A DNA stretch of 64,000 nt from Chamberlinius hualienensis (lineage: Eukaryota). The notes below the pieces were generated by a model. The model did no database searches and was not told the DNA's origin. It worked only from the letters and a program-made list of their open reading frames with translations. Positions 4,672 through 48,403 of the stretch are shown here, piece after piece. Numbering within the stretch: position 1 is the stretch's first letter; every line of letters begins with the position of its first letter. The position numbers and the translations under genes were made by a program. The stretch covers positions 1,238,979-1,302,978 of the forward strand of contig BAAGAE010000031.1 in NCBI GenBank assembly GCA_054772095.1. The letters are read 5' to 3'.

Positions 4672-6480
<1,809 letters not shown>

Positions 6481-7405: not shown

Positions 7406-8805
7406 TGTTTAGTTACAGAATAATGATCAATAAACTCTTTATTTACTCGGCTTATTTTTAATTAAATATTGAGTTTTAAATCAGAAAATGTTTGGTGTAT
7501 TAATTAATATTTTTTTATTATCTTTTTATCAAATGATGGTACTAATTTGTTTTTAAAAGTATTAATTTAAGACTAGTATAGATGTAGTGTTTAGGAATGT
7601 AACTTTGACAAAATGGCACGGATAAACGTTTAATTTTGGGTTTTATAAATCGATTTACAGAAAAGCAGTTGCTGATACTGATGTAACAAACCACATGGAA
7701 CCATGGGCTTTCGAAGTTCTAAACCACATAAAATAGCAACATTTTAAATTTAAGTATGGCGAAATATTTAAAAAATATCACTGTTCTGTATTATGTCATA
7801 ATCAATTCAAATGATATTCAATGATTTAGATCTATTGTCTTAAACATTATCTTATAAACCCAAAAAAATGTTTTAAATAAAAATTCTAGAAAATCCGAAG
7901 TAAATAAAAAAATATCTACTGCAACTAATACTACTTCATTCAAAATTTTAAAATGGATTACATTTTTTAATAATTTAATATTTACATTTATCACTCAACT
8001 CACATTACACAATTTTTCCAAAATGACAAAACACTCGGAACTTTCATCATTATATTGTTTTCATCACCATATAGTGTAAACAATGGTTGATTGGTCGTAT
8101 TAATTCTGTATTAACTTTTAGCATCTATTTGATATTTACCATTGTTTAAATAAATATAATGCGGCATGAAATTTTAATGTTAACATAAAACCTCAACAAC
8201 AAAGCAGTTTGAAAATTGTTTATCACTGTTTGTACTGTTTTCCACCGCTTCGTAATAAAATTTCCCAAATCACACCCTGAAGGAAATGTTTCTTCTACAA
8301 AAAATTACTCAACACTATAATTGCTTAGTTATTTTTTTAAGCTTGTTTTCCTTTAATAAAATGAAAAACATAAACAACATTACGAAAATAATGTTTCTTC
8401 GCTTCCAATTGGATGACTTTTATGTTCGACGGGCGTTCTTAGCGGGTTACTTCTGTAAACAAAATGCTTAAATATTTACTATTTCAAAAATAAATGCTGG
8501 CTCAGCGCTGCTTGGCGTATTCGCAATCGTAATAGCGCTTGCACGCATGCGTATTTTATATTAAGAATATATTTGATGTTTCTGCGCATGATTGTAATAT
8601 CGACATCTACCATTCTTTAAAGTATTTCAGCTTTTGTATAAGCGCTTATGTAAGCGCTGAATAATTTATTACAGTGTTGGTGAAAGCTCCCACTAAAGGT
8701 AAAAACATAAGCAGACGCCATTTGCACCGTGTTTACTTCGGAAAATATGTTGTAAACAAGAAAAACATTGTTTTCTATCTGTATTTTGCGTGTTGCAAAT
8801 GTGAA

Positions 8806-11276: not shown

Positions 11277-14200
11277 CTACGAAGGTGAAGCGTTTAATTT
11301 TCGTAGAATGCCATTGTTACTATCAAGATGAACATGATCTCCTGAAATAAACAGTATTCAGTTACATCATATCCTTAACATACAAAACTGCTAATAATTA
11401 AGCATAATTATGATGTATACCCGATTTAAACAGCTGTGTTGCTTTTGTTGCAGCTATTAAACACGGTAAGCCATATTCTCTCGCTACCACTGCACCTGTA
11501 ACAACACAAATTACTACAAGTTGCATCTGATAGTGATAAATCAGATGTAGTCAAGTGATCGTTTTTAAATGCCATGTTATTTTGGTTTTGTGTTAAAATT
11601 TCATTCTAATTTTAAAACTTAAGAGGGGAATGAGTTATACAATGAATATAATACCGTTTTCATAGGTGAAATATTTTTTTTACCGTGAGATATTAGACCC
11701 CCGAGTTCCGTAACAATTCCAGAAAGCAATGGAAAATACGGGCTCCAACCAATATCAGTGGAATGAGTGATCAGAATGTCTCCTTTCTAAAAATATTCGT
11801 GTACAATGAAAATGACTATATAAGCAATCAATGGCTAAAACGTACCTGAATTTGATGAGCATCATCGAGTGAAGTTATCACTCTGACTATCCCTTTCACA
11901 CTGCCATGGCACACAGGATAAGCTGATCCATCATGAATCCAGATTCAATATATGAGTCATGAAAATAAATTTAATTTCGATCATTTACCTTTCAATTCAA
12001 GAGTGGAATTAGATATATCATCACTTTCTTCTTCTTTATCCCACTAGAAACAATATTGTAACAAATTTAAAACTCAAAGGGATTTCCTTAAAATTACATG
12101 ATCTGGGAATCCAGAGCCACATTCATCAAACTTTATTGAATCCATTTTATCGTATAAACGTCTTCTTCTTTGAGCTCTTGAGTTTCCCACCCAAAAAAAA
12201 ACCCGAATTAAAAAAACTGGAACGTATGCTAGTTTTATTGACGATAATGTTTAATTCTACCTGGCTAATAGTGAAGATGAACGGGTGTTCAATACAATTC
12301 CTACTTCTTCAAATGTTAAGAAATAGATTAAGTCAGTGTCTGGTAAAAATCCCTCATTTACCATCAATTTAGCCAAAAGACAAAATGACATCTTAAGGCG
12401 TTCTTCCACTTTTATCATCATTGACTGAAAATAATAGTATTAATTTTATACTAGTATACATTTTGTTTGAAAATCTAATTCCATAGAATATACTTTTGCT
12501 TGTTCGCGATAGCAAACTCCACTTTTACATCGAGATATTGCGAAGGCTAACAGTTTTCTTGTCAAAATATAAACAAGTAAAATGTTAATATGATTGGGTT
12601 TGAATAACATTAGCGTTCTGTTTACCTTCTGAAAAATCCAATTTTAGTTTTGATGTTATTAATGGCTTCGTTCACTGTAAGTATAGGATTTTTGAGAGAT
12701 AATTGACCAGTGCTTCCTCTTACGGTGTTCTGTCAATTCCAAGCGATTAATACAAAAATGATAATTCCAGTTTTCAGTTCTATTTACTTGTAAAATTTTA
12801 ACAAATCCTTCTGGTTCCATTCCCCATGATGGGCTACGCATTTCAAACTAAACCAAATTGGAATTTCAATATTGTAAATGAGTAAAACTATAATAGTCCA
12901 AATTTAGCCAACTTCTCTTATTCCTCTATGGCCATGGCGTTCAAGAAATTGGCGAAATTTTTCACCAATCGTTCCTTTATCTTCATTCAGCTTATTCAAC
13001 GCTTCCTAAGTTACAAAAATTATCTTAAAATTCTAAACGTATGTGACGGAACGAATATTATACTTGCGGTTTCAGTTGGCTAAAATTTTCGTAGTTTGTC
13101 GATTTTATCACCAAGTTGGCCAATTCCTTATAATATAAATTGTAAACGTAAATTTTTATTGAAAAAAATAGGATTTACTGTAATGCTGAATGGCACATCT
13201 CCACTTTCTGCTCCATTGCAGCTGCCAACTAACATAGCAAAATCATGATAATGATCCATTGTAAAATCTAAAACCAAAATATCGACTAATTATTTAGTAA
13301 GGATTTAAGAAAACGTATCTCTCATACCTGGGCTGTTGCCAGCTAGAAGTTTTAGTATAATAAAATTCCACAGATTTGATCCCATTAGGACTTGAACGTG
13401 ACCCGTTAAAATCTAAATTGGCTTTTGTAATGAAACGTAGTTGATAATGCCAGTTAGGATAATGAATTACCTCGTCGATGTTCATAATTTTTTCACAAAT
13501 CAAATCGAAAGCTTCTTTAGCTGTTTTAGCTCCTTCGGCATGTACTGGGAAATGCCTGTATTTCACTTCAGCTCCTCTCAAAAATCGTTTACCAATTACC
13601 ATTCCCTTTGGGAAAATAGTTTGTTTTTACATTTTAAGTTAATTATAATAATAGTATACCAGGAAAGGAAAAACCATGCTCATAATCTTTTGAATGTATC
13701 CAGGAAATGGAAATCTTTCCAGGGCAATTTTTTCCAGTTCCTCATCATCGTCCATAACTCTCCCGAAGAAACCAAGTTCAAACGACTTGGTCATTAGACT
13801 TTTTTTCTCTTCGATATGCCACGTTTTTTGCTGTTTTTTAACATAAAAATTATCAAAGTGTTAGTTATTGAAAAAGTCCTTGTACATACAAATATGCGAT
13901 CAAAAAATTGGTGATTATAATAAAACACGGTAGGTCCTGAAAACGTTGGATCAAATTCGCCTGGTGAAGCAAAGAAAGGATTTTTCTAAAATAAATTTTA
14001 ATTAGAAATTTCAATACAAAATGCAAAAATTAATTATGAACATCACTTGAAAGCAAGCTCCATGAACCCTACGATCAGCTGTTTGAGTAAGAGGAGTCAA
14101 CGCCCCAGGCATCACTTCCCTAAAATTTAAAAAAAGTAAGATTGAAAACTTTGCCAATGCCAAAATCAATTTTATTTTTACGAATTATTCAAACCTTCAT

Positions 14201-17200
14201 GTTGTAATGCAATACAAAACTTACCCTATGTTCGCTTTTGTCCTTGCTTCAAAATCGGTTCGTAACCCACTGTCAAATTCATGCATGATTTCATCGTCGG
14301 TTATTGCAGCACCTGTGGTCACTGGTCTCGACTGAATCAGATTATTGTAATCTGATTAAAACTCCATTTTATTGATAAATATCATTATCGAACCTGTAAA
14401 ATGTAGAGATGATCTTGAATGATCGCCCATTCAAGATCTCGAGCATTTCCATAACGTTTTTCCAAGTAAATGGCAATTTGAGCTAATTTTAATATTAAAT
14501 GATCGTTTATAGAGCACTGTGCTTTCTCGGAATGTGAAATATCTTGGTTTATTGTTCCACCACTTTCTAAATTAAAAAATGATTAATTTTTGTATGGTTT
14601 AAAAAAGGGCTAGTACTGACTTACCAGAGATAATCATTTTTAGATTTTTAGCTCCAATTTGTTTCTGGGCAATTTCTAAGTCGTCCTGAAAACTTCTTCG
14701 CACAACAATTGTGTCTGGGTCAGATAAAGCAGATACGACACTCTATAGTAAAATTTAGTTGTTCATTCTTAAAAAATCATTATTTGTGTTTTAAAAAGTA
14801 ATACTTCTCCCAGGCCATAGTTAGACGTGATGATGATTGAGCTACTGTTGCCTGTTAGTGGATCACGGCTAAATAAAACGCCAGCTGAATCAGCTGGTAT
14901 CATCACTTGAACAACAACTCCCATTTCACCATCAATTATTTGCCCATTTTGTCTAGCAATTTAATGAAAATTTATTGTATCAAATACTGTATTGTAAAAT
15001 AAGTCAAATAAAAGACCTTCGATATTCCACTGAACGAAATGAAAACTGAGATGCCCAACATTTAACAATAGATTCGCAAATCTGAAAATATTTTCGGAAA
15101 TTAACTTCAATATTACCCGTAATAATATTAAATGATTTAATTTACGTTGTCAATCCCTTGTATTCCTAAATAAGTTTCATTTTGTCCAGCTGATGACAAG
15201 TCTTCGCCATCCTCACCTACAACAATATATTAATTAAAGAAAATTATGAAATATGTATCGACGGTACCAATAGCTGAAGATCTGATTGCAAATTTGTTGT
15301 TATCAACATCTTGTCCAAATAATTTTTCTAACTCTTTAGCAACGTCTTGTCTGACTTCATCTGGGATTTGAGTTTTTGATATCAACTCTACACAGCTTTC
15401 AAATAATACAAAATAGCAATTTAGAAACACAATTCGACATATAAATGCGAAAAATACCTCTTGCAAACGTCTTCTAAAGAGATGCAAATTTTCCGTCTAA
15501 AAGACAAAAGAATTTAGATTTAAGTATCAACAGTACTTTCAACTTTTTTTTTTATAAGGCTAGATATTTACCCAGCAACATCTACTAAATGTGATATGGC
15601 TGATTTGACTTTTTCGTTTCGATTGAGCAATAATTCAAATCCATATTTTGTGACGCAGACTCCATCTGGTATTGAGAACTATTGCAAATCAAAGAGATGA
15701 CTGATTAATAGTTTAATAAACAGTTAATTTCAAGACCAATAACCTTTTTAATGTCGTCATCCAACAACTCTTTTCTTATTTCCTTAAGATGAGCTAAGCT
15801 GGCTCCTTTGCCACCAACAAGTTGACCACCCTGACATAACGAATCTTCCAAATTCACCACTAATTTTGTTGTTTTGGGAAGGTCTAGATAAAAGAATAAT
15901 TGGTAAAACACTTTATTCAAATAAAGTAATTTTTACCAGGTTCCTTGATAAGTGGTAGAACAGGGGGCCTGATAATTGGACATATTTTTTCGTGAGGTTT
16001 GGCAATATAAATAAATCCGTAGCCACTGTCCCCATTATGCAATTTAAAACTAATAGGAGAAACCAAAATTTCGGATTTCCATTGAAGTCCTCCAAATACC
16101 CGAAATCCCTGATTATTATCTACTGTTGCGCTGAATTTGTAGAGTTCTTTACCTGTTATAAATTCTACTGTAATAATTATTTTACAATGAAAAGTTAATG
16201 TTGTGCCATTTACATGAAGTTTTAAAGTCAAATTTGATTGATGAAGGAAGATGAGCACTGGATGTCCAGTTGTCAATGTCCCAATTAAGTTTAGTTATGT
16301 AGGGCTTTGTCACGTCAAAAGGAATTGTAACATATCCATTAACAATACTACAAAAATAAAATTCGAAAGTTATTTGTGAAAAGATGATTTTAAGCCACTA
16401 CTTACTTTTTAACAAGCTTATTATGCGGTTGACCATTTAATACGTTTGTAGAGTTTATAGTGTTGTTGACTTCAATATGTAATCCGGTACCTTTCTGTAA
16501 ACAGTTGAAACTTGTTTCAGAATAAGTCATTACTGAATAAACATCATCATATAACTTTCACCTTAGTATAGCCTTTAATTACAGCCCACTGTTTAACATT
16601 ATTCCAGTCTAAAACACCTAATAAATGTTTAAGATATTAATTAAAAATGCAGTCATTTTTTAAAGACAGAATTACCATATCTTCTTTCCCTTGATCCTCT
16701 CAGAAGTAGTCGCTGCTCTTTATCATTTTCAATATTTATTCTTCCGTACCAGTGACCCCAGTTTTCAAAATTTTCAAAAGGAACCCTATTAAAAATTTAA
16801 ACCGAGATTATTAATTTCATTTTTAACAATAATATTATTTTACGTACAATTGCGGATTCTTTAAGAAATCTTTTGTCCATTCTGATTGAGCTAAAAAATC
16901 AGCTACCATTGAAGCATCATAAAAATTTTGGAATGATCGATAATAAGAGCTAGGATGATATCTATGAAATAATGAAAAAAACATGCCAAAATTATATTCC
17001 TATTCAGCAGTTTTTTCTGTTCATATAATTTATTTCTTACGTAAAACAAAATCTGACATTAACAATGTTGTCGTCATCAACTTCAGCCCACTTTTGCTTA
17101 ATTCCTTTCCTTAAAAATTACAATACAATTAACTGCAATACTTTTTGGAAAAAATTTCAAAATTTGACTTTCAACCTGAGTTGACCGTTAAATGTGATTC

Positions 17201-17680
17201 GGCATCGTCGAAGTGGTTCATGAACTTCAACGTTAAGTCCAGCTGCACTGAAGGATTTGCCATCTGTATGACATACTACAGTATCCGGATGGAATGGCAG
17301 TTGATAAATGTCACCATTTGATAACTTTAAATATAAACTAACTTCAGAAACGCGATTTGGTCGACGCCATATGGAAATCATTAATAAGTTTCCTTTTTCA
17401 TCACCACCCCAAATATCAATAATGTCCGCTCCCTAAAAACTGAAATGTTAATAATTATACTACAATCAATCGGAGGACAACTTACATGCGGATGAGCAGG
17501 GATGGGTCTTGGACGGTCTTTTTCCCAAACATCTTCAGGATTAAAAACTCCCAATTTTCTAAGATCATTTGTGCCGATGGCATAAGAAAGTATAGGCTGC
17601 TTCTGCTTTATGATTTTTCGAGCTTTATAGTATATGGCGATATATTTTATCCAGTACAATAAACTGTCTGAAAAATACAA
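11277..17680 (-). CDS. PEP-synthase/pyruvate-phosphate-dikinase-like protein (PPDK_N + PEP-utilizers domains), paralog A
   Basis: Putative ATG at 17680. Exon 1 ends ..DLRKLGVFNPEDVWEKDRPRPIPAHPH|gtaagt. Exon 2 (17159-17460) GADIIDIWGGDEKGNLLMISIWRRPNRVSEVSLYLKLSNGDIYQLPFHPDTVVCHTDGKSFSAAGLNVEVHEPLRRCRITFNGQL ends at donor AG|gttgaa. ATP-grasp exon DLPKTTKLVVNLEDSLCQGGQLVGGKGASLAHLKEIRKELLDDDIKK (ORF 15705-15920). Region 13294-13602 aligns to the GIxxxKxLxxAVxxYQNYTDPSL exon of B/C. C-terminal swivel domain GDILITHSTDIGWSPYFPLLSGIVTELG and VVTGAVVAREYGL at 11460-11790. Terminal exon ..DHVHLDSNNGILRKLNASPS, stop TAG 11277-11279. Only partly reconstructed; more diverged from B/C than they are from each other. 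Confidence 0.7.
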
Positions 17681-18140
17681 TATCGATACAAAATTTAAAA
17701 AATGACGAATTCAATAGGTCTCACGTAATGTTATTCTTTATGGGTGGCATACAATACTTGCGAGATATTTATTAATAATATAATTGATTAACATTAACAT
17801 GCGGTGTCACTGGGAAAATTCTGATACTGAAATCCAAATACAATCATAATAATTGTTTTATCAGCATTCCAACCACTAGTTATTTTATTGTGGAATTACG
17901 ACATTTGGCACATGTCGCTTGGGCGTATGTCAAGTACTGCAGGGTCTTCAAGATGTGATTTCGTAACATGCCCATGCCACTTAACAATGACTTTTTTAAA
18001 AGTTTAATCACTGAGTTATGACAACAGATTCACAACATTTCACCAGTTTCAAAAAATTGTTTAAACCAATAACTTTATTATAAATATTAGTAGATTAGGC
18101 CACTTTTATCTTTAAAAGTTTTAGTATAGTTTATGTTACA

Positions 18141-18190
18141 CTATAAATTTGAGTTGAATCAAACACTATAAATTTGAGTTGAATCAATGT
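18141..18190. repeat. Tandem duplication, ~25-bp unit (cactataaatttgagttgaatcaa) x2
   Basis: Read directly; intergenic between PEPS-like A (5') and B (3'). Confidence 0.7.
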
Positions 18191-19246
18191 AGGCATTGCA
18201 TATCGTATCTACAGTAGTTTTCGCCAGGAATGAAGAACTCAGAAATACTACTGAAACATTGAAATGAAGCCTGCATTAAGAAATCATGGCCTTGATATAA
18301 CATACAGTGCATGTAACTAAGTAAATGTGTCAAGTTTTTAGGCTCTAGCACACGAATGGAAAACTTTATAGTACTCAAATACACATCTAATCATTTATAA
18401 TAAGTTAATTACATACTGTGCTGTACATTTTGCCAGTTGGGGGTCGTCCATAAATATATATAACGTTGAACATTATTATAACGGCGAACATTACAATAAG
18501 TTATAGTGGATTTGCTTACTTCGTTTTGTTTCTTTAATTAAAACCTTCTTAAACAGCCAGCCAAAAAAACTGATGAGCATTATTCCAATCATTCCCAATT
18601 TTCAAGTTAGTTTTTGATACTGTAGCTGTTCCAATCTTCAGGAACTTTACTAACTGTCTGTTCGTTGTTTCTTCACTTGCGAAGTTGCTAAATCACTTTT
18701 GTAGGAGGTTCAACAAAGCAAAAGGACTACACGACCTTGAATTTAACCTACCCAGCTGACTACAGTGATTTTCTTAGAGGGGCTGTCTTAGAGGAGAATT
18801 TTAAGAATTACGAGAGAAGTCACAATCCTCGTATGCATGGAATCTTTTGCATGTACAAACTCGAATAAAACAACATTTACCAAATTTGAAATGAGTTTCC
18901 AAGTGAGAGCGATAACCTTTTTAATGATAAGATATGGTCTGTTCAATCCTACATTTATTATTTATCTATAGGAAGTTCATATTTTAAAAGTTCATATTCA
19001 AGACAATAAACAAACATTTAACAAAAAAAATCGTGTTTGTTGATATAATAGTGGCAAAATGATTTACAGCCTAGTCCATTATTTCAAAACTTATTCAGTT
19101 ACAGTAATTTAATAATTCTGAATTATGACTTTACAATATATTACCGCAATTTTATTACCATTTCAAGATATATACAATTAAAATTGATTATAAATATCAA
19201 AGTAGTCGAAATTTCACCGTGATCAAAATGTAATATTTACGGAAAA

Positions 19247-22200
19247 TTAGAGCTCATTATTTTCATGTTTTTCTAATTTTGTTATTGTTCCTTTTGACGC
19301 ATCCAATAACACCATATCTCCTATAATTCAAAAAAAAAAATACTGGTTATCTGTTAATTATCTAATAATACGAGTAACCGTATCTACGTAAAGTACCGAA
19401 TTTGATAGTGTTTACCTGTTTGAAATACTCTTGTGGCATATTGTGCACCAATTACGCAAGGCAATCCAAATTCTCGAGCAACTACAGCTCCTAACGCATA
19501 TAAAAATGATTGTACTTAATTTAGTAATTCCGAGAATCATAAAAGAATATGTAAACTTACCGTGTGAAATGAGTCCACCTATTTCAGTTACAACTCCCCC
19601 CAACATAGGAAAGTAAGGACTCCAACCAATGTCAGTGGCATATGTAATTAAAATTTCTCCAGGCTGATTTAATTAACAGAGTTAATGTGCAAATTAATTT
19701 TCAGTGATAACCTTTATTACGCACCTGAATTGTGTGCACATCGTGAAACGATGTAATTACTCTGGCTCGGCCTTCGATTATTCCTTGAGAAACTGGATAA
19801 CCTAAAAAAAACCAATTATATCTTGATAAAAGAAAGGACTTTGTAATAATTTTCTCAACCCACCTTTAATTTCGACGGCATCATCAGATAGTGGCAATTT
19901 GACATTATCATCAATCTAAAAGTTAGTTAATAATCTTTATTCTTTTATAAAAAAAAAAAAAAATAGCTCTAAACGTGATGCTTACTGGAACCGGAAATCC
20001 TGTAATCATTTCTTCAAACTTCAATTTATCCATATATGAATGTAGACGCATACGTTGTTTAGCTCTGGAATATTAATAATTTGAAAAGTTTAAATCAACA
20101 CACTTAAATCAACCATTAATCGAGTCACCACCTTTGAATTAGTAGGGGGGATCGAGTTTTAAGTAGCCGATCAATCTCGTCTAAACTTAAAAAAAGGATT
20201 AAATTTGCATCGGGTATTAATCCTTCTTCGACCATTAGTTTCCCAAGACGACGATATCCCAAACGTAAGCCGTGGTAAACTTTAATGACCATTGACTGGA
20301 AAATTTGAATTGATATATCCAATAGGTATTATATGAAAATAAAGAACTATAAAATAATTATACACTGTATACCTTTGTTAATTCTCTATTACAAACACCT
20401 CGTCGACCTTTTGCAAGTACCCATCTTAAAAGTCTTCTAAAAATCAATATAACATTTTGAAATTGCTATATTTAATTATCACTCAATCACGGAGAAAATA
20501 TTCATAGCATTGTATATTGACCGTTGTATTGGACCTAATGGCGTTTTAATACCACTAATTACGTCATCAAGCGTTTTTTCCTTCTTATCAACTGAAAGAG
20601 TCGGAGCTTTTAACATATTCTGAAAATTTTGGAATTACATTTATACGAACCGTTTAATGGAATGAAAAAAGATATTTGGCTGTTACCTTAACAACTGTTA
20701 CTATTTGTGTTGGATCCAATGCCCAAGTTACGCAACTCATGTCAAACTACACAAAATCAATAAACAATTAGACAATGCGAATTAAACGTTTATTGAAATT
20801 TATATACTTCTTTCAATCCCCTGTGTCCATGGCGCTCAATGAAATCGTTATACTTTTTACTAACTTCACCGTCTCCATTTTGCAACCACTTCAGCGCTTC
20901 CTATGAAAAAAAGTTTAATAATTGGTCAATTTTGGTATAAACTTAATACTCACAGTTGAATCAAGAGCAATAAACTGTGACGGATCCATCTCCTTTGAAA
21001 CTGCATTAGCTAATTCCTAATAGTTGTTTAATCCGTTATCTGAATATATCTTAATTTAATTATAAAATTTACTTGCAAACTAAACGGCACATTTCCACTT
21101 TCAGCACCATTACTACTGCCAACTAAATAAGCGAAATCTGAATACTGGTCCAGACCAAAATCTACAATAGTTTTAAATTTTGAGTTATATTTAACGCTAA
21201 ATTTAATTAAACGTTAATTAAACGCGAGTTATATTTAATTGGTAATGCCTACATACCACCATCTCCTTTAGAAAGAATGTTTAAAATCATGAAGTTCCAC
21301 GTTGTTGACGACATTGTTATGTACATATGTGCTAACATTGCCTACAAAATGTTAAAAAGTATTTGTTAGTTTTAAAGTAAATCAAATAATTAAAAAAATT
21401 ATTACTCGTTCTACGTCAATTAAATGCTGACCAATGAGGTCAAAGGCTTTTCAGCTGTGTCACCACTTAATGAAGGATCAGTGTAATTTTGATATTGTCG
21501 AACTGCATCATTTAAAAATTTTTTTCCATTAAAAATACCCTATAAATAACATCTGAAAATCAGTCATCGTCTTGACTATACACATAATATTTAGACTTAC
21601 TTTAAGTCCCATAGTCATTAAAAACATTTGACTTTTCAAGGGGGGTTTTGTAAAGCGTTCACTTGCAATTTTGGCCACATCGTCATCATCTAAAACTCTA
21701 CCATAAAAAGCAACTTCAACTGCTTTTGACAAGGCAGATTTTTTCTTTTCGAAATTCCAAGCTTTCAACTGTTAACATAGTATTTATTTTAGCATAAATA
21801 AGTGTGACAGTTAAAACAAAATCACGTGTTTACCTGGACACGTTCATTCATAACATGACCGTAAAATAAACCAACCGCATAAGGAATCGTTGGATCATAG
21901 CGATGATAAGGCATTTTCCATATAAACATTTTCTAAATCAAGTTCACAAATATATTAATATAAAGCAATGAAATGTTATTAAGTATAACTGTTTTACGTG
22001 TATCAATGAACCTTGAGCCTTCATAGCTGAGGTAACAGTAACAGGTGTCGACGCACCAGGCATCACTTCTCTGCGTTTTTAAATAAATATTAATAAACCT
22101 TAATTATCAATGCAACTGCATATGTTGTTAAGTCATTTTATTATAAAGCTTATATCGACTTTAAAAAAATCAAAAAGACTTTCAGCATTCGAAGTTGAAC

Positions 22201-25200
22201 TAATTACTCACCCAACATTGGCAGTACTGAATGGCTCTTCGTCTACTCTTAAAACAGTATCAAACTCATGCATTATTTCAAAGAAGGTCAAATTGTTGTT
22301 GCCAGTAATCGGCCTCGACTGTTCAAATACAAAATAAATAAGTATAAAAGAATCTAATGGCTATTGCAGAATTTCATACTTGTAGAAGATAAATGGTTCC
22401 ATTACAAACTGCCCATTCAATATCTCGACCCGTGCCAAAGCATTTTTCCAAATAAAGCGCAATGTTTCCAAGTTGAACAGCCAATTCATTATCGACTGTT
22501 AACTTTGAGCATTGATCAGCGTCTAGTTCAATTGCATAAGTGCCTCCATCCTCTGCAAGATGTAAAAAAAACCATTTGAAATGAATAACTTCTCGATATT
22601 AAGAAAATGTACCGTTCATAGTTATCATATTTTTCTTGCTTCCAATTACATTATCGTCAGTTGTATGCAGTTTATCATTCCACGTTCTGCGAAGTATTAT
22701 GTAGTCTGGCTCTGCACTGGCTGACACGACACTCTTCATTGACGCAATTCATAGCCAAATAAAGACAATGTTACAGCAAAAAATCACACTCAACAAATGT
22801 TTGTTTACCTCTCCAAGACCGAAATTAGACGTTATAACCATTTTGGCCGAACTGCCAGTAATTGGATCTCGGCTGAATAAAACACCTGCAATTTCAGCAT
22901 TTACCATCTCTTGGATTACAACTCCCATACCAGCGTATAACGGCTGACCGTTTTGCCTAAGTATTTTGACTGCGTTTTAAGTATAATGGAATTAAAACCT
23001 CACACCTACTATAATATCCATACCTTTTATATTCGATTGAACGATAGGCAAACTGTGAAGCCCAACAATTAACAACTGCTAAAAAAATCTGTTTAAAAAC
23101 ATTTAGCCAATAATGAGAAAGTTACATATAACGTGCAATTAGTAGTTTTTTACATTTTCAGTCCCTTTCACTCCTAAAATGGTATCATTCTGTCCAGCGG
23201 CTGATAGTTCTTCTCCATCTTCGCCTTCAATTAAATATTTAATATAGCATTACAGCCTAATTTAAAGAAAAAAATTTAATTTTAAATTCTTTTACCGACT
23301 GCTGAAGACCGAATTGCAAATCTTTTAGTTTCGTAGTTTTCACCAAATAAGTCTTCTAGTTTAGTAACTATAGTCGTTTTAAGAATTTCTGATAAAACAG
23401 TAGCAATCACTGCAGCATACATGCTAATTAATCACGAATAACATGATAATATTAACATGATAAATCGATCGATTCAATAAAAAATAAATAGTTACTTTTT
23501 GCACTCATCTTCTAACGATCCATGATTATGTCTGTTAAATTAAAATATGATTAAAGAAATTTCATTTTGGTGAGTAGTGGCAAAAAACAAACCCAGCTGT
23601 GTATTTTAGCTGTGCGATAGAGTTATTCAAATGGGAATTATTTTTCAAATGTAAATCAAATGCTGTCTTCGTTAAACAAAATCCATCCGGAATGCTAAAC
23701 TGTAATTGCGATTAGTTAAATATATATATAAAATATATGCACCTCAATAATTAAATTATTACGTTTTTTAGTTGAGAATCCAACGAACTCATCAATGCTA
23801 ATGATGAACCTTTGCCACCAACAATTTGGCTACTTTTACAATTTTCTTCGCTAAAATCCACCACTATTTCATTGCACTGTGTTATATGAGCTAGAAGTTT
23901 TTTAAAAATGAGTTCAGTGATTGAATCACTTAATAATAATATTTTCAGCGACAATAACTAACTTAAATCCAAAAGCTGTGGTACGGAATCCCGAATAGTG
24001 ACAGGACAATGTGTTTGATTTTCATTTGGCACTGAAATTTCAACAATTCCTTCTCCCTCCGATGCATTTAGGTTTACTTTCACACTGAAAATATTTACAA
24101 TTCGGTTCCACTGCTGACCTGAATAAACGGTCATTCCAGAAACGCGTTCAACTTTTAGCGTATATTTAACACCATCTAAAGTTTGACTTATTTTTTATTC
24201 ATAAATTTAAAACACCTGAATTTGATTTACAAACCAGCTATAAAATTAATGACCGAATTATCTGGAAATGTTTCTGGATTTTTCTTTAGCATCTCAAAAT
24301 CTATATGGTAATCATTGACAGGTAGTATTCTTATACTGTCGGGACTGCAAACGTAGCCATAAACAAAACTATAAAAATGTAAGAATTTAATGTATCAAAT
24401 CTCTTTTTCTTAATCCTGCAATGGGCAGTAATATTACTTTTGCAAAATATTATCACATTCTGCAAACAAATGAAAAGTCGTTCCATTCTGTAAAATACAT
24501 AAATAAACCAAAAAAAAGTTCTTTTGAATAATGTTTATAAACTCATGGAATATGAAACGTACGTGGAGAACTCCTTGATAGGAAAATGTCAATTGATCTC
24601 CTTGAGGAATGCCTATTAATGGTAATTTTTAAGTTATAATGTCTTTGTTAACGCAATGTTTATTTTGTCACCATGTTTTCTGGCTTTTAGCCCTCTTAGC
24701 AACAGTTCAGTGTTCTGGTTATTGATCGTTATTACACCATGTAATTGACCAAATTGCTCTTGCCAATCCTGAGTAAATCTTTTTTAAAAAAAATTGAAAT
24801 GGTTATTTTCGCTGGTTGATCGTCATTATATTTGACTTACAAATCATATGGGGATGGTGGCTCTGTTTTTTGTTTAGCAAACAATTTCACCATACTAGGA
24901 ACACTAAAATCTTCAGGAAATCCCATATAACCGTGAATAGGATGCCAACTGTATCAGACAAGAAATATTCATGTTAAGTAAATTTTAAGTGATCAGCAAT
25001 TATTACAGCTAAAGCCTTTAAAACGGATTTTACATTTTATCATTTGTGATTTGTGATATCTTTATCATATACGATCATCCTATTTTTCCAATATCATTAT
25101 TTAAACACTTATAATATTACTATCATTTGATAGTGAAACTCCATGTCCATACCTTTCCATACAAAAAAACACCAATTATTAACAGTTAGACTAAATTGTA

Positions 25201-25954
25201 AAAGTTAATGCCGATATAATATATTTTTAAAATATATTATATGAATTGGAAGTGTTTCTTGTGACCGCTAGTTAGACTTATGAATGAACTTACATAAAAT
25301 TAAATCGTACTTCGACTACATCTGATTCGCTTTCATCCCAAGTCGAACGTACTCCTTTCCTATAAGAATAAGAAAAGCATTAAACTATTTCCACCACCTT
25401 ATGAAGTTTAATTATAGCGTATTTGCCTTAGATAACCGTTGAATATTATTCTCCATATTCGTAATGGTTCAATAACTTCAAAAGTCAAACCTGCAGCTGA
25501 AAAACTTCTACCGTCTGTATTATAAGCACAGACATGTGGGTGATGTGGAAGTTGATATTGTACACCATCGCTCAGTCTTAAATACAGCATAACCTCAGCC
25601 AATCTGTTATTTTTTCGTGTAATTCTTGTGAACAGGACACAACCATCACGACGAACACCACAAAAACCAAGCGAATCAATAACCTACATCATAAAAAGAG
25701 CCAAATTACATTAATTAATAGATTTTATTAAATTTCCTTTGATACTTTTATTTGCAGGTTTTTAGATCAATACTTTATTAATAACTTACATGTTCAGATG
25801 ACAGTTGTCTTGGACAATCTTTCTCCGAAGCTTCAGGTAAAGTTAAAATTCCTTTCTTTCGTAAATCACTCGCTTTAATGTCAAAATCAAACGTCGGTTT
25901 TAGTTTCTTTTTTAAACTGCTAACATAGCGATTGGTGAAAAATGTCTTCTTCAT
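19247..25954 (-). CDS. PEP-synthase/PPDK-like protein, paralog B (tandem duplicate of C; possibly frameshifted)
   Basis: Reconstructed exon chain: 25790-25954 (ATG 25954; MKKTFFTNRYVSSLKKKLKPTFDFDIKASDLRKKGILTLPEASEKDCPRQLSSEH), 25427-25683 (ends AG|gcaaat, a GC donor), 25294-25359, 24841-24948, 24672-24778, 24563-24612, 24438-24487, 24235-24368, 23963-24175, 23763-23890 (..QIVGGKGSSLALMSSLDSQLKN), 23593-23699 (FSIPDGFCLTKTAFDL..), 23496-23531 (36-nt microexon), 23296-23423 (..RFAIRSSAV), 23164-23234, 23024-23088, 22809-22956 (QNGQPLYAGMGVVIQEMVNAEIAGVLFSRDPITGSSAKMVITSNFGLGE), 22613-22733 (SVVSASAEPDYIILRR..), 22380-22552 (..CFGTGRDIEWAVCNGTIYLLQ), 22212-22318 (SRPITGNNNLTFFEIMHEF..), 21998-22070, 21834-21932, 21601-21768, 21406-21539 (134 nt versus 135 nt in C; a 1-nt deficit that shifts frame), then several C-terminal exons (..GGVVTEIGGLISHG.., ..AVVARELGLPCVIG..) to stop TAA 19247-19249 (..DMVLLDASKGTITKLEKHENNEL). 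Every splice phase closes onto the recognisable PPDK_N frame. Confidence 0.7.
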
Positions 25955-26883
25955 TGTGGTACATCGAGATAAATAAAATCCGTTGAAACTGAAATGATTA
26001 TGTCATGACCGTCATTTAATACGGATGCTACCAGGATACAATAAAATGACGAAAAATCTCACAACTCAATGTAAGCTAATAACCAGTTACTGTATATTAT
26101 GGGAACTGTTGACTTGAGGGCATCTTTGGGTGTTGCTGACCTTGTTTTCTGCACTTCACTTTTGATAATAGTATCCGGTTGGCAACTGGGTTGAAATGCA
26201 TTCACGTACACGATCTGTTTAATCTAACCTGTCTTTTTTAAAGCGTTTTCTGAAATTGAATCAGAAGCTTCTTAAGTTGTTTTGACACATTGCACTTGTA
26301 CTGGAAAACGTAAAAGCGTACTCAGTACTGTATTTTTATTTTCAGCATCCATCAAAAATCCTTAATTAATTATACTCCGTCCTTCGAATAATTAAAACGT
26401 TAATTTTACGAGGGACTTTTATAAGGGAATTCCAAGAAGTGGAAATAATTTCGTATGTTTTGAATTTTTTGGCATGTACAAATTTTAATGGCATAATTAA
26501 TCCTGAAATCTAAATGATCATGTAATGAGTTGTCAAGGCTAACGTTTCCATCCGAGTAAAAACTATTTACTAATGGAATATAATAACATAATATAGTCTG
26601 CTTGCTTATAATTCGTTTTGACATTACGTTTATAATAATAATACAGTACTAAAGCAACTTTTTAACAAGTTCAAAAAATAAAAGTTTGAAAATGTTATCC
26701 GTCTTAGACCGTTTTAATAATAACTTTTACTACTACTCCTGTTATTTTAAAAGTTTTAAGAGATAGATCGTGAGACTTCGCAGTCCGATATTAGAGAAAT
26801 TAATTTCGTTAACATTGGATTCAAAACATTTATTCAATATTTAAATTCGCTACACCTTAATTAATAGTGATAACATTAAATTT

Positions 26884-29800
26884 TTAATGTTCATTATCTT
26901 CACATTTGGAAATTCTTGTTATAGTTCCTTTTGAGGCATCAAGTAACACCTTATCTCCTATAATAAAAAAAAATACATTTCAGTTGAACAGTAAAAACAA
27001 AGAACTAGTAAGTACAGTATATCATCTGATGAAATGTATACCTGTTTGAAATACCCTAGTAGCATTTTGTGCACCAACTACACAAGGCAATCCAAATTCA
27101 CGAGCAACTACAGCTCCTAATTGTCGCCAAGTCAATTCATTTAAAAATAACTATCGGTATAGTAATATGGAGAAATTTAAAAAAATATATTTGAATTTAC
27201 CGTGTGAAATGAGTCCACCTAATTCGGTTACAACTCCACCTAACATAGGGAAGTATGGACTCCAACCAATATCAGTAGCATGAGCAATTAAAATTTCCCC
27301 AGGCTGCTTAATTGAAAATATTAATGTGATGAATTAATTTGTGTGATGACTTATTATGCACCTGAATTGTATGCACGTCATGAAACGTTGTAATTACTCT
27401 GGCTCGTCCTTCGATTGTCCCTTGAGATACTGGATAACCTAAAAATCAATTTTTTTCGTAATAACCAATAAATAAATACTGTTTAAGTTGCTGTAATTAC
27501 TCTTAACACACCTTTAATTTCAACGGCGCCATCAGATAGTGGCAATTGGGCATTTTCGTCAATCTAAAAGATATCACCATTTTTCTGCATATATATATAT
27601 ATATATTTTTTTAAATTTTTTTTGGAAAATAACTCTTACTGGTACTGGAATTCCCTTAATCATCTCTTCAAACCTCAGTCTGTCCATAAAGGGATGAAGA
27701 CGCATACGTTGTTTAGCTCTGGAATATTAATGTTTAAATCGACTCTCTTAAATGGATGATTAATAGAGACATCACCTTTGAATTAGTAGGGGAGATCGAG
27801 TTTTAAGTATCCGATCAATCTCGTCAAAAGTTAAAAAAAGTATTAAATTTGCGTCGGGTATTAATCCTTCTTCGGACATTAGTTTTCCAAGACGACGATA
27901 TCCCAAACGTAAACCGTGGTAAACTTTAATGACTATTGACTGCAAAATTTGAAATAATATTATCCAATAGGTATTATGCAATAATTAAAAGAGCAATAAA
28001 ATACTTATACACTGTACACTAACCTTTGTTAATTCTCTATTACAGACACCTCGCCGACATTTTCCTAGTACCCATCTTAGAAGTCTCCTAAATCAGCGTA
28101 ATTATATGGTAACTGTTATTATTTAATTATCACTCAATCACGGGGAAAATATTCATAGCATTGTATATTGACCGTTGTATTGGACCTAATGGCGTTTTAA
28201 TACCACTAATTACGTCATCAAGCGTTTCATCCTTCTTATCAACTGAAAGAGTTGGAGCTTTTAACATATTCTGAAAATTTGGGCATTACAGTTATACGAA
28301 TCGTTTAATGGAATGAAAAAAGATATTTGGCTGTTACCTTAACAACTGTTACTATTTGTGTTGGATCCATTGCCCAAGATACGCAACTCATGTCAAACTA
28401 CACAAAATCAATAAACAATTAGACATTGCGAATTAAACGTTTATTGAGATTTATATACTTCTTTCAATCCCCTGTGTCCATGGCGCTCAATGAAATCGTT
28501 ATACTTTTTACTAACTTCACCGTCTCCATTTTGCAACCACTTCAGCGCTTCCTATGAAAAAAAGTTAATAATTGGTCAATTTTGGTATAAACTTAATACT
28601 GACAGTTGGATCAAGAGCAATAAACTGTGACGGATCCATCTCCTTTGAAACTGCATTAGCTAATTCCTAATAGTTGTTCAATCCGTTATCTGAATATATC
28701 TTAATTTAATTATAAAATTTACTTGCAAACTAAACGGCACATTTCCACTTTCAGCACCATTACTACTGCCAACTAAATAAGCGAAATCTGAATACTGGTC
28801 TAGACCAAAATCTACAATAAAGTTTGAGTTATAGTTTTACGCTAAATATTTAATTGACAATGCCTACATACCACCATCTCCTCTAGAAAGAATGTTTAAA
28901 ATCAAAAAGTTCCACACAGTCGATGACATTGTTATGGACATATGAGCTATCATTGCCTACAAGTGATTTGAAAAAAAATATATATGGGTTGATTATAAAT
29001 GTAGACCGAACATAGTAAAATGTGTAATACTTGTTCTACATCAACCAAATGCTGACCAATGAGGTTAAAAGTTTCTTCAGCCGTTTGGCCACTTAATGAA
29101 GGATCAGTATAATTCTGATATCGTTGAACTGCATCACTTATTAGACTTTTTCTGCTAATGATACCCTTTGAAATAATATGTATAAATCATTAATTCCATT
29201 GAATAAACGTAAATTAGTAAAAATTACTTTAAGCGACATATTCATTAAATAGATTTTACTTCTGAACGGAGGATTTGTAAAACGTTCAATTGCAATTTTT
29301 GTTACATCGTCATCGTCTAATACTCTTCCATATATTCCAACTTCCATTGCTTTTGTCATAGCCGATTTCTTCTTCTCCAAATTCCATGCTTTCATCTATT
29401 AACCAGTTATAACATATTACGTAAATGACAATAACATTTCGCTTTAATACCATGACAGTTTCTTGCATAACATGGCCATAAAATATTCCAAACATTTCAG
29501 TTATTGTCGGATCATAGCGATGGCATGAAACTCTCCATGAAATCATTTTCTAAGGTAAATTTACAAATAAAATACTAAAAACCAGTAAATTGTTAATACA
29601 TATGACTTTTTACTTGTACGAATGGAACTTGAGCCCTAGAAACTGAAGTAAATGTAACAGGAGTGGTCGAACCAGGCATCACTTCTCTTTTAATTAAACA
29701 AAATATTAAAAAAACAAAGTACTGTATCAATAACTAATTAACGTCAATTCCAAATGTTGCAAATCATTTGATTACTAAGCTTATTAAAAAAAACTATGCA

Positions 29801-32800
29801 AATATTGCGTGAAAAGAAGACTTTCAGCATTCGGAGTTGAAGTTGAACTAATTACTCACCCAACATTGGCAGTACTGAATGACTCTTCGTCTACTCTTAA
29901 AACAGTATCAAACTCGTGCATTATTTCAAAGTCGGTCAAATTGTTGTTGCCAGTAATCGGCCTCGACTGTTCAAATACAAAATAAATAAATATAAAAGAA
30001 TCTAATGGCTATTGCAGAATTTCATACTTGTAGAAGATAAATGGTTCCATTACAAACTGCCCATTCAATATCTCGACCCGTGCCAAAGCATTTTTCCAAA
30101 TAAAGCGCAATGTTTCCAAGTTGAACAGCCAATTCATTATCGACTGTTAACTTTGAGCATTGATCAGCGTCTAGTTCAATTTCCTTAGTGTCTCCATCCT
30201 CTGCAAAATGTGAAAAAAAAACCATTTGAAATGAATAACTTCTCGATATTAAGAAAATGTACCGTTCATAGTTATCATATTTTTCTTGCTTCCAATTACA
30301 TTATCGTCAGTTGTATGCAGTTTATCATTCCACGTTCTGCGAAGTATTATGTAGTCTGGCTCTGCACTGGCTGACACGACACTCTTCATTGACGCAATTC
30401 ATAGCCAAATAAAGACAATGTTACAGCAAAAAATCACACTCAACAAATGTTTGTTTACCTCTCCAAGACCGAAATTAGACGTTATAACCATTTTGGCCGA
30501 ACTGCCAGTAATTGGATCTCGGCTGAATAAAACACCTGCAATTTCAGCATTTACCATCTCTTGGATTACAACTCCCATACCAGCGTATAACGGCTGACCG
30601 TTTTGCCTAAGTATTTTGACTGCGTTTTAAGTATAATGGAATTAAAACCTCACACCTACTATAATATCCATACCTTTTATATTCGATTGAACGATAGGCA
30701 AACTGTGAAGCCCAACATTTAACAACTGCTAAAAAAATCTGTTTAAAAACATTTAGCCAATAATGAGAAAGTTACATATAACGTGCAATTAGTAGTTTTT
30801 TACATTTTCAGTCCCTTTCACTCCTAAATAGGTATCATTCTGTCCAGCGGCTGATAGTTCTTCTCCATCTTCGCCTTCAATTAAATATTTAATATAGCAT
30901 TACAGCCTAATTTAAAGAAAAAATTTAATTTTAAATTCTTTTACCGACTGCTGAAGACCGAATTGCAAATCTTTTAGTTCCGTAGTTTTCACCAAATAAG
31001 TCTTCTAGTTTAGTAACTATAGTCGTTTTAAGAATTTCTGATAAAACAGTAGCAATCACTGCAGCATACATGCTAATTAATGACGAATAACATGATAATA
31101 TTAACATGGTAAATTATTAGATATCTTATTCATAAAAATAGTTACTTGTCGCATTCATCTTTTAACGATTCATGATTATGTCTGTTCAATTAAAACTATG
31201 ATTAAAAAAAATTCGTTTTTGTAGGTCATGACAATAAACTAACCCAGCTGTGTATTTTAACTGTGCGATGGCATTATTTAAATGGGAATTATGCTTCAAA
31301 TGTAAATCAAATGCTGTCTTCGTTAAACAAAATCCATCCGGAATGCTAAACTGCAATTGCTATTAGTTACAGAAACTGTATATATAATATATGCACCTCA
31401 ACAATTAAATTATTACGTTTTTTAGTTGAGAATCCAACGAACTCATTAATGCTAATGATGAACCTTTGCCACCAACAATTTGGCTACTTTTACAATTTTC
31501 TTCGCTAAAATCCACCACTATTTCATTGCACTGTGTTATATGAGCTAGAAGTTTTTTTAAAAATGAGTTCAGTGATTGAATCACTTAATAATAATATTTT
31601 CAGCGACAATAACTAACTTAAATCCAAAAGCTGTGGTACGGAATCCTGAATAGTGACAGGACAATGTGTTTGATTTTCATTTGGCACTGAAATTTCAACA
31701 ATTCCTTCTCCCTCCGATGCATTTAGATTTACTTTCACACTGAAAATATTTACCATTCGGTTCCACTGCTGACCTGAATAAACGGTCATTCCAGAAACGC
31801 GTTCAACCTTTAGTGTATATTTAACACCATCTAAAATTTGACTTATTTTTTATTCATATATTCAAAACACCTGAATTTGAGTTACAAACCAGCTATAAAA
31901 TTAATGACCGAGTTATCTGGGAATTTTTCTGGATTTTTCATTAGCATCTCAAAGTCTATATGATAATCATTAACTGGAAGTATTTTCATACTGTCGGCGG
32001 TGCAAAGGTAACCATATACAAAACTGTAAAAATGTACGAATTCGATAAATTAATTTAATTTTTAATTTAATGGGCAGTCATATTACTTTTGCAAAACATT
32101 ATCACATTCTGCAAACAAATGAAAAGTCGTTCCGTTCTGAAAAATACAAAATTAAACCAAAAAAAAGTTATTTTGAATAATGTTTATAAACTCATGGAAT
32201 ATGAAACGTACGTGGAGAACTCCTTGAAAGGAAAATGTCAATTGATCTCCTTGAGGAATGCCTATTAATGGTAATTTTTAAGTTATAATGTCTTTGTTAA
32301 CGCAATGTTTATTTTGTCACCATGTTTTCTGGCTTTTAGCCCTCTTAGCAACAGTTCAGTGTTCTGGTTATTGATCGTTATTACACCATGTAATTGACCA
32401 AATTGCTCTTGCCAATCCTCAGTAAATCTTTTTAGAAAAAATTGAAGTGGTTATTCACGCTGGTTGATCGTCATTATACTGTATTCGACTTACAAATCAT
32501 ATGGGGATGGTGGCTCTGTTTTTTGTTTAGCAAACAATTTCACCATACTAGGAACACTAAAATCTTCAGGAAATCCCATATAACCGTGAATAGGATGCCA
32601 ACTGTATCAGACAAGAAATAATATTGTCAAGTAAATGGACAATTATGAAATGATCAACAATTATTGGAAATACAATAGTAAATCAAATTGTGTGGCTCAT
32701 ATGTGATATTAATGGACATGTTAACATATTGTTGGTTATTTTTAAATTTTGGCAATATTTCTACTAAGCCGTTTAGAAACTACTATTGTTTTATATGTAC

Positions 32801-33650
32801 ACCAATTTGTAACTGTTAGAACCGATTTGTAAAATTAGATACCGATATGTCGAAATTAACATTGACTTACATGAAATTAAATCTCACTTCGACTACATCT
32901 GACTCGCTTTCATCCCAAGTCGCACGCACTCCTTTCCTACGTGGATATAATAGAAAACATGAATAATGATTCCAACACTCTATACATTTTATTTACAGCA
33001 TGCTTGCCTTAGATATCCATTGAAAAATATTCTCCATATTCGCAATGGTTCAATAACTTCAAAATTCAAACCTGCAGCTGAAAAACTTCTACCGTCTGTA
33101 TTATAAACACAGACATGTGGGTGATGTGGAAGTTGATATTGTACACCATCGCTCAGTCTCAAATACAGTATAACCTCAGCCAATCTGTTATTTTTTCGTG
33201 TAATTCTTGTGAGCAGGACACAGTCATCACGGCGAACCCCACAAAAGCCAAGCGAATCGATTACCTATATCATAAAACGAACCCATTGGCATTAATAGAC
33301 TGCGTTAAATTTCATTTAATATGTTTATTTTTTATGTCTTGAAATCAGTGGTGTAGTCGAGGGGAAACGGGAGGAGGGAAGTCGTTCCTGTACTTTTTTG
33401 AATGTCCCTAAGTATGATGGAAAATTAGCGTTCTACCACTATTTAACTTAGCACTACACCACTGCTTGAATTAAATATAGTGTCTTACGTGCTCGGATGC
33501 AAGTTGCCGTGAACAGTCTTTCTCCCAAGCTTCAGGTAGAGTTAAAATTCCTTTCTTTCGTATATCACTAGAGTCACAGTCGAAATTAAACGTCGGTTTT
33601 AGTTTATTTTTTATGTTGCTAATATAACGATTGGTGAAGAATGTCTTCAT
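26884..33650 (-). CDS. PEP-synthase/PPDK-like protein, paralog C (tandem duplicate of B)
   Basis: ATG at 33650 (MKTFFTNRYISNIKNKLKPTFNFDCDSSDIRKKGILTLPEAWEKDCSRQLASEH|gtaaga). ORF 32989-33183 (MAEVILYLRLSDGVQYQLPHHPHVCVYNTDGRSFSAAGLNFEVIEPLRIWRIFFNGYLR, ends AG|gcaagc GC donor). 31380-31500 (..IVGGKGSSLALMS..). 30022-30225 (..LEKCFGTGRDIEWAVCNGTIYLLQ). 29141-29395 (MKAWNLEKKKSAMTKAMEVGIYGRVLDDDDVTKIAIERF..). 29000-29160 (GIISRKSLISDAVQRYQNYTDPSLSGQTAEETFNLIGQHLVDVEQ, 135 nt, intact). 27772-27981, and swivel-domain exons near 27050-27300. Terminal exon ..DKVLLDASKGTITRISKCEDNEH, stop TAA 26884-26886. Colinear with B at an offset of ~7.58-7.65 kb. Confidence 0.75.
33346..33465. mobile_element. 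MITE-like insertion (12-13 bp terminal inverted repeats CAGTGGTGTAGT / ACTACACCACTG) in an intron of PEPS-like C, absent from the homologous intron of B
   Basis: cagtggtgtagt at 33346-33357 and its reverse complement actacaccactg at 33454-33465 bracket ~95 bp with no counterpart in the aligned B intron (25700-25790). CTTGAA occurs on both flanks (possible target-site duplication, not perfectly adjacent on the left). Confidence 0.45.

Positions 33651-43454: not shown

Positions 43455-48403
<4,949 letters not shown>

Follow-up and report, generated by a model that had tools for sequence, protein, structure and literature searches.

The rifampicin phosphotransferase of Listeria monocytogenes (RPH-Lm; PDB 5FBS/5FBT/5FBU and 5HV1; NCBIfam model NF041857) is organized as an ATP-grasp domain, a helical domain, and a C-terminal swivel domain with the phosphate-carrying histidine. 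Mutagenesis of RPH-Lm has shown that K22, R117, and T136 position ATP, that R666 and E667 serve the second phosphotransfer together with K670, and that H825 is the phosphate carrier; the reaction yields AMP, inorganic phosphate (Pi), and the phospho-drug, and pyruvate is not used (PMC4844700). ATP-grasp and phospho-histidine swivel domains, as well as an AMP-forming dikinase chemistry, are also found in phosphoenolpyruvate (PEP) synthase and pyruvate phosphate dikinase (PpsA/PPDK; TIGR01418, TIGR01828; 2OLS, 1DIK), while the prodigiosin ligases PigC, RedH, and HapC, the hydroxyphenylethanone kinase HpeHI (in two subunits), and a zearalenone phosphotransferase belong to the same superfamily and follow the same three-domain logic. 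Studies of PigC-type and RPH-like kinases show that a variety of hydrophobic substrates, with hydroxyl or carbonyl groups, can be used by this scaffold. Here, we compare these systems with three genes (A, B, and C) on a stretch of 64,000 nucleotides (nt), hereafter the window, from the polydesmid millipede Chamberlinius hualienensis (assembly GCA_054772095.1, contig BAAGAE010000031.1, positions 1,238,979 to 1,302,978). All three encode an RPH-like series of domains preceded by a predicted N-terminal double beta-barrel, and we are fairly confident that they are paralogs of an old metazoan four-domain enzyme with RPH-type phosphotransfer to a small-molecule hydroxyl, the acceptor presumably being a lipophilic alcohol.

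An RPH-like phosphotransferase module

A preliminary description of this DNA had read the three genes as joining a pyruvate-phosphate-dikinase-type ATP-grasp domain to a C-terminal swivel domain with the phospho-histidine, and the Pfam, phmmer, and Foldseek results all agree with this architecture. The two Pfam families that had been suggested for a check were recovered in all three proteins: PPDK_N (PF01326) at 179-247 bits against a gathering cut-off of 27 (E 2e-52 to 5e-73), and PEP-utilizers (PF00391) at 69-79 bits against a cut-off of 23 (E 3e-19 to 2e-22), with values of E 5.5e-73 and E 3.2e-19, respectively, for gene A. At E <= 0.01, no further Pfam domain was found in A, B, or C, and the PEP/pyruvate TIM-barrel (PF02896) had no match at this threshold. 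The swivel histidine domain is C-terminal in all three proteins. The sequence motifs GGKG[AS]SLA, GLGESVVSA, RD[IL]EWA, LQSRP[IV]T, and TE[LI]GGLISHGAVVARE[YF]GLP are present as they had been quoted, except that the motif given as GLGE.VVSG ends here in A and not in G. In addition, precomputed Pfam annotation of family members lists PF27448 ("Rph_4th").

Conservation of the catalytic histidine and of the ATP-grasp lysine and arginine had likewise been proposed as a check, and all of them are retained in A, B, and C. The histidine (His1302 in A, His1236 in B, and His1244 in C) sits in the motif GGLISHGAV and is aligned with RPH H825, and the RPH residues K22, R117, T136, E297, Q309, R311, R666, E667, and K670 are also all retained in the three proteins. 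The catalytic set of gene A includes K459, R567, T586, E751, R1139, E1140, K1143, and H1302, in which the triad R1139-E1140...K1143 of the helical domain corresponds to RPH R666-E667...K670. Across alignments of 56-58 animal homologs, conservation of the catalytic residues is complete or at least 90%.

By sequence, the best solved protein is Listeria RPH (phmmer, E 7.7e-72), with a match that covers the ATP-grasp domain and residues 572-864; identity to RPH-Lm is ~22%. By fold, the AlphaFold2 model of A residues 436-1348 (pLDDT 89.5) aligned full-length with RPH-Lm 5HV1 (Foldseek E 1.4e-42, ~950 columns), whereas fold matches to PEP synthase and PPDK were partial and weaker (E 1e-17 to 1e-8). 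The architecture of A, B, and C is RPH-like and not PpsA-like. Many homologs carry the automatic name "putative phosphoenolpyruvate synthase" and, with ATP-grasp and swivel-histidine domains in common with PpsA, the genes could be taken for true PEP synthases (pyruvate, water dikinase; EC 2.7.9.2) of gluconeogenesis. We consider this extremely improbable. The TIM-barrel of PpsA/PPDK is not found here at E <= 0.01, and the histidine domain is terminal rather than central; scores with the PEP synthase models TIGR01418 (245-305 bits against 740) and NF005057 (261-319 against 598) are far under the cut-offs; and pyruvate is not a substrate of RPH, whose architecture is the same (PMC4844700). A true PEP synthase was therefore rejected on the missing TIM-barrel, the domain order, and the sub-cut-off scores. 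Given these same points and the RPH-type fold, the database name is a misnomer.

The resemblance to RPH does not extend to membership of its characterised subfamily. NCBIfam models of PEP synthase, RPH, PigC, and RedH all match A, B, and C at a quarter to half of their curated cut-offs. For RPH, the scores are 285-340 bits against 999 with NF041857, a third of the equivalog cut-off, and 195-242 against 1700 with NF000283. For PigC and RedH (NF052631 and NF052632), they are 249-300 bits against 1300 and 1350 (265-300 for PigC). Judged by these scores, the millipede proteins are neither RPH nor PigC equivalogs. A strict RPH ortholog was considered and rejected, its equivalog scores being far under the cut-off.

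The N-terminal barrel and the proposed reaction

Compared with RPH-Lm, the millipede proteins have an added N-terminal barrel of ~350 amino acids (aa) and a leader of ~50-80 residues, with an anchor in A; PigC, RedH, HapC, HpeHI, and the zearalenone phosphotransferase are also without the barrel. What had been described simply as a long N-terminal region can be recognized as a defined double beta-barrel similar to AttH, CrtC, and 25-phosphosteroid lyase (25-PSL). In the AlphaFold2 model of A residues 1-466 (58 sequences, pLDDT 89.7, pTM 0.87), an N-terminal helix at residues 2-18 is followed by a beta-rich domain that, as modelled, has the two-barrel lipocalin-like fold of the AttH/CrtC-like superfamily. 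Its relatives include a putative AttH (2ICH), kievitone hydratase (7A0Q), the fungal Diels-Alderases Fsa2 and CghA, 25-PSL (9FZN), and the Pfam families DUF7064 and DUF7065, with identities of 7-18%; in contrast to the AttH/CrtC-like enzymes, the barrel is here fused to a dikinase. The characterised enzymes with this fold catalyse hydration, cyclisation, or elimination on lipophilic chains of isoprenoid, sterol, or polyketide type. A profile of 26 N-domains had 25-PSL as its top PDB match (E 0.016, in three collinear stretches), and a profile built from stand-alone relatives alone again had 25-PSL at the top (E 0.005). Pfam DUF7064 was matched by seven of the 26 N-domains (best E 1e-7), the N-domain of gene A not being among them.

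Searched against 1.84 billion representative proteins, the N-domain profile gave 1445 matches at E <= 1e-3, many of which are complete proteins of ~400-420 aa without the kinase part. Such stand-alone barrels are found in chicken and other birds, a hemichordate, starfish, the mollusc Aplysia, a nemertean, shrimp, and mosquito, all under the name "uncharacterized" (P0126, P0134, P0137 for the chicken LOC776594 cluster, P0138, P0140, P0148, and P0163; locus L002). For example, the DUF7064-type proteins of Gallus gallus (LOC776594), Patiria miniata (LOC119745233), and Aplysia (LOC101853644) match the full length of the N-domain as homologs (E 1e-70 to 1e-106); this type of protein, which is without the kinase part, occurs in vertebrates as well. 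In starfish, the introns of the stand-alone gene are shared with the N-part of the fused starfish gene in nine of nine cases, and eight of them with the millipede genes. Because these stand-alone proteins exist, the barrel is an autonomous module. A full-text search found no literature on them.

The helix in front of the barrel is encoded by the first coding exon of gene A, which is separated from the rest of the gene by an intron of 852 nt. The preliminary description had missed this exon and placed the start of A at 17680, while its coordinates for B and C were exact. A similar hydrophobic start is present in many homologs of other species. Upstream of B and C, a search for a counterpart of this leader exon gave none, and its limitation to A among the three genes therefore suggests that the paralogs differ in their localisation. 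Within the long first intron of gene A, we also observed a perfect 25-nt direct duplication (18138-18187).

By analogy with RPH, the four parts (the AttH/CrtC-type double barrel, with an anchor-like helix before it in A; the ATP-grasp domain; the RPH-type helical domain; and the swivel histidine domain) would work together as follows. ATP would bind to the ATP-grasp domain, and the swivel histidine would attack its beta-phosphate, with AMP and Pi leaving. The phospho-histidine domain would then swing to the helical domain, where the Arg-Glu...Lys triad would position the phosphate for transfer to the hydroxyl of a small molecule, so that the overall reaction would be ATP + acceptor-OH + H2O -> AMP + Pi + acceptor-O-phosphate. 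Such AMP-forming chemistry is the most likely one because the full RPH dikinase machinery is retained. The acceptor would not be pyruvate and is probably not rifampicin. Since the substrates of characterised barrel-fold enzymes are lipophilic chains (sterol, isoprenoid, or polyketide), we would expect a lipophilic alcohol, which the barrel may hold or deliver. Alternatively, the barrel may process the phospho-ester, for example by eliminating the phosphate to give an alkene, which would amount to an ATP-dependent dehydration. With the RPH apparatus retained and its fusion to the barrel ancient, a vague annotation can be turned into a testable hypothesis, namely AMP-forming phosphorylation of a lipophilic alcohol with elimination as a possible second step.

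A more specific form of this proposal is a fused kinase-lyase, in which the RPH module would phosphorylate a (tertiary) hydroxyl of a sterol, ecdysteroid, isoprenoid, or polyketide, and the barrel would eliminate or substitute the phosphate. We regard this form, drawn by analogy, as quite unlikely. To our knowledge, the only kinase-lyase chemistry described to date comes from the anaerobic degradation of sterols by bacteria, where it is divided between two enzymes. One of them, a kinase, makes a tertiary sterol phospho-ester, and the other, 25-PSL, strips the phosphate from it (PMC8449060, PMC11061730). That kinase, the 25-hydroxysteroid kinase, belongs to a "phosphotransferase family", has a size of ~40 kDa, and is ADP-forming, in a fully reversible ATP-coupled reaction (PMC8449060). 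It was considered as a dikinase homolog that would serve as a Rosetta stone for the fusion, and was ruled out as an unrelated kinase. If a fused kinase-lyase were true, the stand-alone barrels of vertebrates would be an orphaned second half of it, and B and C, in which an acidic residue of the barrel is lost, would be plain phosphotransferases or ligand binders.

Several points weigh against the proposed enzyme or against parts of it. We found no biochemical or expression data for A, B, C, or any animal member of the family. Over its first half (A 772-1050), the helical domain is without pairwise sequence similarity to RPH, and comparison of this half with the PDB returned nothing past the tail of the ATP-grasp domain; because it is unlike the rifampicin-binding region, the acceptor pocket cannot be read from RPH. 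The sequence link between the N-domain and 25-PSL is weak (E ~0.01) and rests mainly on the fold. The aspartate of 25-PSL that differs between PDB 9FZN (SRDRSWG) and 9G4C (SRNRSWG, Asp to Asn) is replaced by Glu265 in A and by Ala in the other two genes; the position is variable in many arthropod paralogs, while the stand-alone animal proteins and the lophotrochozoan and deuterostome fused members have Asp. That this aspartate is catalytic is a guess from the mere existence of the 9G4C variant structure. A lyase role cannot be common to all copies, because the acidic residue is lost from B and C and varies among many arthropod paralogs, and the kinase-lyase analogy is functional only, because the partner kinase of 25-PSL is not homologous to the dikinase module. 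Lastly, gene B may be non-functional, as its exon 23 (discussed below) indicates.

With RPH as the nearest solved relative by sequence and fold, the genes could also be RPH orthologs or xenobiotic or antibiotic phosphotransferases, that is, a detoxification family in which the N-domain is a passive accessory. Bacterial relatives phosphorylate zearalenone (PMC11768653) and hydroxyphenylethanones (PMC12167813), and the midgut of a tick shows strong regulation of one homolog (PMC5099782). Family size points the same way: among the best 120 of 727 homolog matches, to which our statements on family distribution refer, C. hualienensis has at least eight paralogs, and there are many copies in spiders, horseshoe crabs, and ticks, as in detoxification-like expansions. 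However, the scores with NF041857 are far under its cut-off, the helical half that contacts rifampicin is not recognisably conserved, and the conserved extra N-domain is left unexplained. We judge this reading unlikely, yet a generic xenobiotic phosphotransferase role is a serious alternative, and it overlaps with the four-domain phosphotransferase that we favour.

It has to be considered, too, whether the module activates its substrate in the manner of PigC or RedH, where phosphorylation would turn an oxygen into a leaving group and so permit condensation or cyclisation, with a pericyclic or carbocation-type second step performed by the barrel. The scores with the PigC and RedH models are near those with the RPH models, and Diels-Alderases and hydratases occur within the barrel fold. 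The same scores are, however, far under the cut-offs of 1300 and 1350, and an animal genome offers no pathway context, the neighbours here being housekeeping genes. Such an activation is very unlikely in our estimation, and phosphotransfer to a small-molecule hydroxyl is preferred.

Distribution and age of the family

The preliminary description had called this architecture unusual in an animal, which overstates the case. The architecture is widespread in invertebrates and often multi-copy: it is annotated automatically in spiders, ticks, horseshoe crabs, crustaceans, and many insects, and also in molluscs, annelids, echinoderms, and hemichordates, with identities of 34-49% over more than 1250 aa between the millipede proteins and those of arthropods, molluscs, echinoderms, and hemichordates. 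No fused form was found in vertebrates among the best 120 of 727 matches. Database labels on the family include PEP synthase, rifampicin phosphotransferase, PigC, and YvkC. Full-text literature searches returned no work on what the animal proteins do, in line with the earlier statement that its function is not established, and the C. hualienensis genome paper (PMC12671775) and its supplements do not mention A, B, or C. The array itself is a tandem expansion of an ordinary kind, and its genes had already been deposited. What makes it of wider interest is the family behind it, which is large, bilaterian-wide, often multi-copy, misleadingly named, and without a function in the searchable literature. 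To this, we add a previously unremarked barrel domain with stand-alone relatives in vertebrates, and we flag two likely errors in the deposited models and a possible frameshift in gene B.

Each of the millipede genes has 36-37 introns, with mixed phases and a median length of 62-67 nt (62 nt in A), and exons have a median of ~95 nt. Splice sites are GT-AG throughout in A; B and C each have a single GC donor among theirs. GC content is 0.38 in exons and 0.25 in introns. The ortholog in the starfish Patiria miniata (P0106) has 41 coding exons, and of the 36-37 introns in the millipede genes, 33 are shared with it, 28-30 of these at exactly the same position (a shared intron being one of the same phase within two columns on the protein alignment). 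The introns in common span all four domains. Because so many positions are shared with the starfish ortholog, the fused, intron-rich gene is older than the protostome-deuterostome split, and the long residence in the genome that had been argued from the introns is borne out.

These data bear directly on bacterial contamination or recent horizontal transfer. All characterised relatives of the module are bacterial, and the millipede genes differ from RPH-Lm in being eukaryotic, with 37-38 coding exons. A bacterial origin of this kind is refuted by the spliceosomal introns and their positions in common with starfish, and the probability that we attach to it is vanishingly small. The base composition of the array is that of its flanks, within a window that is AT-rich throughout (~32% GC), and the neighbours are Arf, MADF, PCI-domain, NUDIX-like, and alanyl-tRNA synthetase genes, an ordinary housekeeping context of an animal chromosome.

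The array, its gene models, and its surroundings

Coordinates of the genes, their domains, and other features are given in Table 1. The deposited models, all on the same contig and all named "hypothetical protein", fit the window at 100% identity by spliced mapping through GT/GC-AG introns, which confirms the three same-strand paralogs at the places where they had been reported. The genes are arranged head to tail on the minus strand in the order C, B, A, with spacings of 0.65 and 0.93 kb. A fourth copy was not found in the window by tblastn.

Table 1. Features of the window (position 1 is its first nucleotide)
Feature	Position	Strand	Remarks
Gene A (CHUAL_007365, P0008)	11277..18592	-	1348 aa; 38 coding exons; exact spliced mapping
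Gene A, first coding exon	18520..18592	-	73 nt; encodes MIGIMLISFFGWLFKKVLIKETKR, a hydrophobic signal-anchor or transmembrane-like N-terminus
Gene A, N-terminal double beta-barrel (aa ~80-432)	15941..17503	-	predicted AttH/CrtC/Diels-Alderase/25-phosphosteroid-lyase fold
Gene A, ATP-grasp domain (aa 441-783)	14272..15863	-	Pfam; alignment to RPH-Lm residues 18-317
Gene A, Lys459 codon	15807-15809	-	
Gene A, helical middle domain (aa 784-1240)	11996..14271	-	equivalent of RPH substrate-binding domain
Gene A, swivel phospho-histidine domain (aa 1241-1343)	11295..11995	-	Pfam; RPH alignment
Gene A, catalytic His1302 codon (CAC)	11685-11687	-	
Gene B (CHUAL_007366, P0002)	19247..25954	-	37 coding exons; 1252 aa deposited, 1285 aa corrected
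Gene B, His1236 codon	19562-19564	-	
Gene B, Lys410 codon	23811-23813	-	
Gene B, 99 nt omitted from deposited model	22380..22478	-	33 aa, VQLGNIALYLEKCFGTGRDIEWAVCNGTIYLLQ; in frame, canonical donor
Gene B, exon 23, 1-nt deletion relative to C	~21438..21458	-	B/C alignment
Gene C (CHUAL_007367, P0001)	26884..33650	-	37 coding exons; 1260 aa deposited, 1293 aa corrected
Gene C, His1244 codon	27202-27204	-	
Gene C, Lys409 codon	31465-31467	-	
Gene C, 99 nt omitted from deposited model	30028..30126	-	33 aa including RDIEW motif; as in B
B/C near-identity tract 1	C 30000..32600 / B ~22350-24950	-	sliding identity per 200 nt
B/C near-identity tract 2	C 28200-28830 / B 20550-21180	-	sliding identity
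PCI-domain protein fragment	440-706	-	
Arf GTPase, first exon	6256-6474	-	
MADF-domain protein fragment	8674-9210	+	
Weak NUDIX-like open reading frame	37903-38655	-	250 aa
Alanyl-tRNA synthetase exons	45903-46897	-	

Gene A shares ~42% aa identity with B and C, at saturated synonymous divergence (dS). Between B and C, overall identity is 89%, as a mosaic of high- and low-identity tracts. In the near-identity tracts, identity is mostly 94-100%, introns included, with dips to 83-89%, and the flanking tracts are at 60-77%; local dS is 0-0.03 within the tracts versus 0.4-0.6 outside. This mosaic is consistent with gene conversion between the tandem copies. The ratio of nonsynonymous to synonymous divergence (dN/dS) is 0.30 between B and C and 0.20-0.25 when A is compared with either of them, climbing to ~0.4 at codons 800-1000. 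With dN/dS at 0.20-0.30, the coding sequences of all three genes are under purifying selection. The ongoing diversification that had been suggested from the three local copies is partly offset by the apparent conversion between B and C, and by possible damage to B.

In the deposited models of both B and C, exon 18 stops at a weak internal GT, which drops 33 conserved residues of the ATP-grasp domain, including DIEW. In the genome, this stretch is open and ends in AAG|GTATGA, leading into a 61-nt intron at the exact position of a gene A intron. Without the 33 residues, the PPDK_N match ends at profile position 268 of 328, compared with 325 in gene A. Going by the genomic sequence, the omissions are likely two errors in the deposited models.

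The case of exon 23 in gene B is different. It has a 1-nt deletion relative to C, and runs into a TAA stop when read to the ancestral donor. The deposited model of B uses a GT 27 nt before this donor, which costs nine aa and gives an exon of 108 rather than 135 nt. A genuine lesion, a new splice form, and an error of the long-read assembly are all conceivable readings. Together with the deposited B and C models that lack a conserved ATP-grasp segment and the dN/dS of ~0.4 at codons 800-1000, the deletion raises the question of whether some of the copies, or all of them, are duplicates in decay (pseudogenes). The frames of A and C are, however, fully open with every catalytic residue, overall dN/dS is low, the omitted segment is intact in the DNA with a canonical donor, and the deletion in B could be an assembly error or be bypassed by the upstream donor. 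Decay of the copies is highly unlikely on balance.

As for the rest of the window, scans for tRNA genes, Rfam families, and tandem repeats gave nothing relevant. Away from the genes, the region 50000-56000 has the lowest GC of the window (0.25-0.29) and a positive GC skew, and no gene was recognised in it. Tandem repeats lie at 49230-49300 and 51640-51773, with a 25-nt repeat in 5.4 copies (TTTGGGGATAAATTTTAGGTGTTTG).

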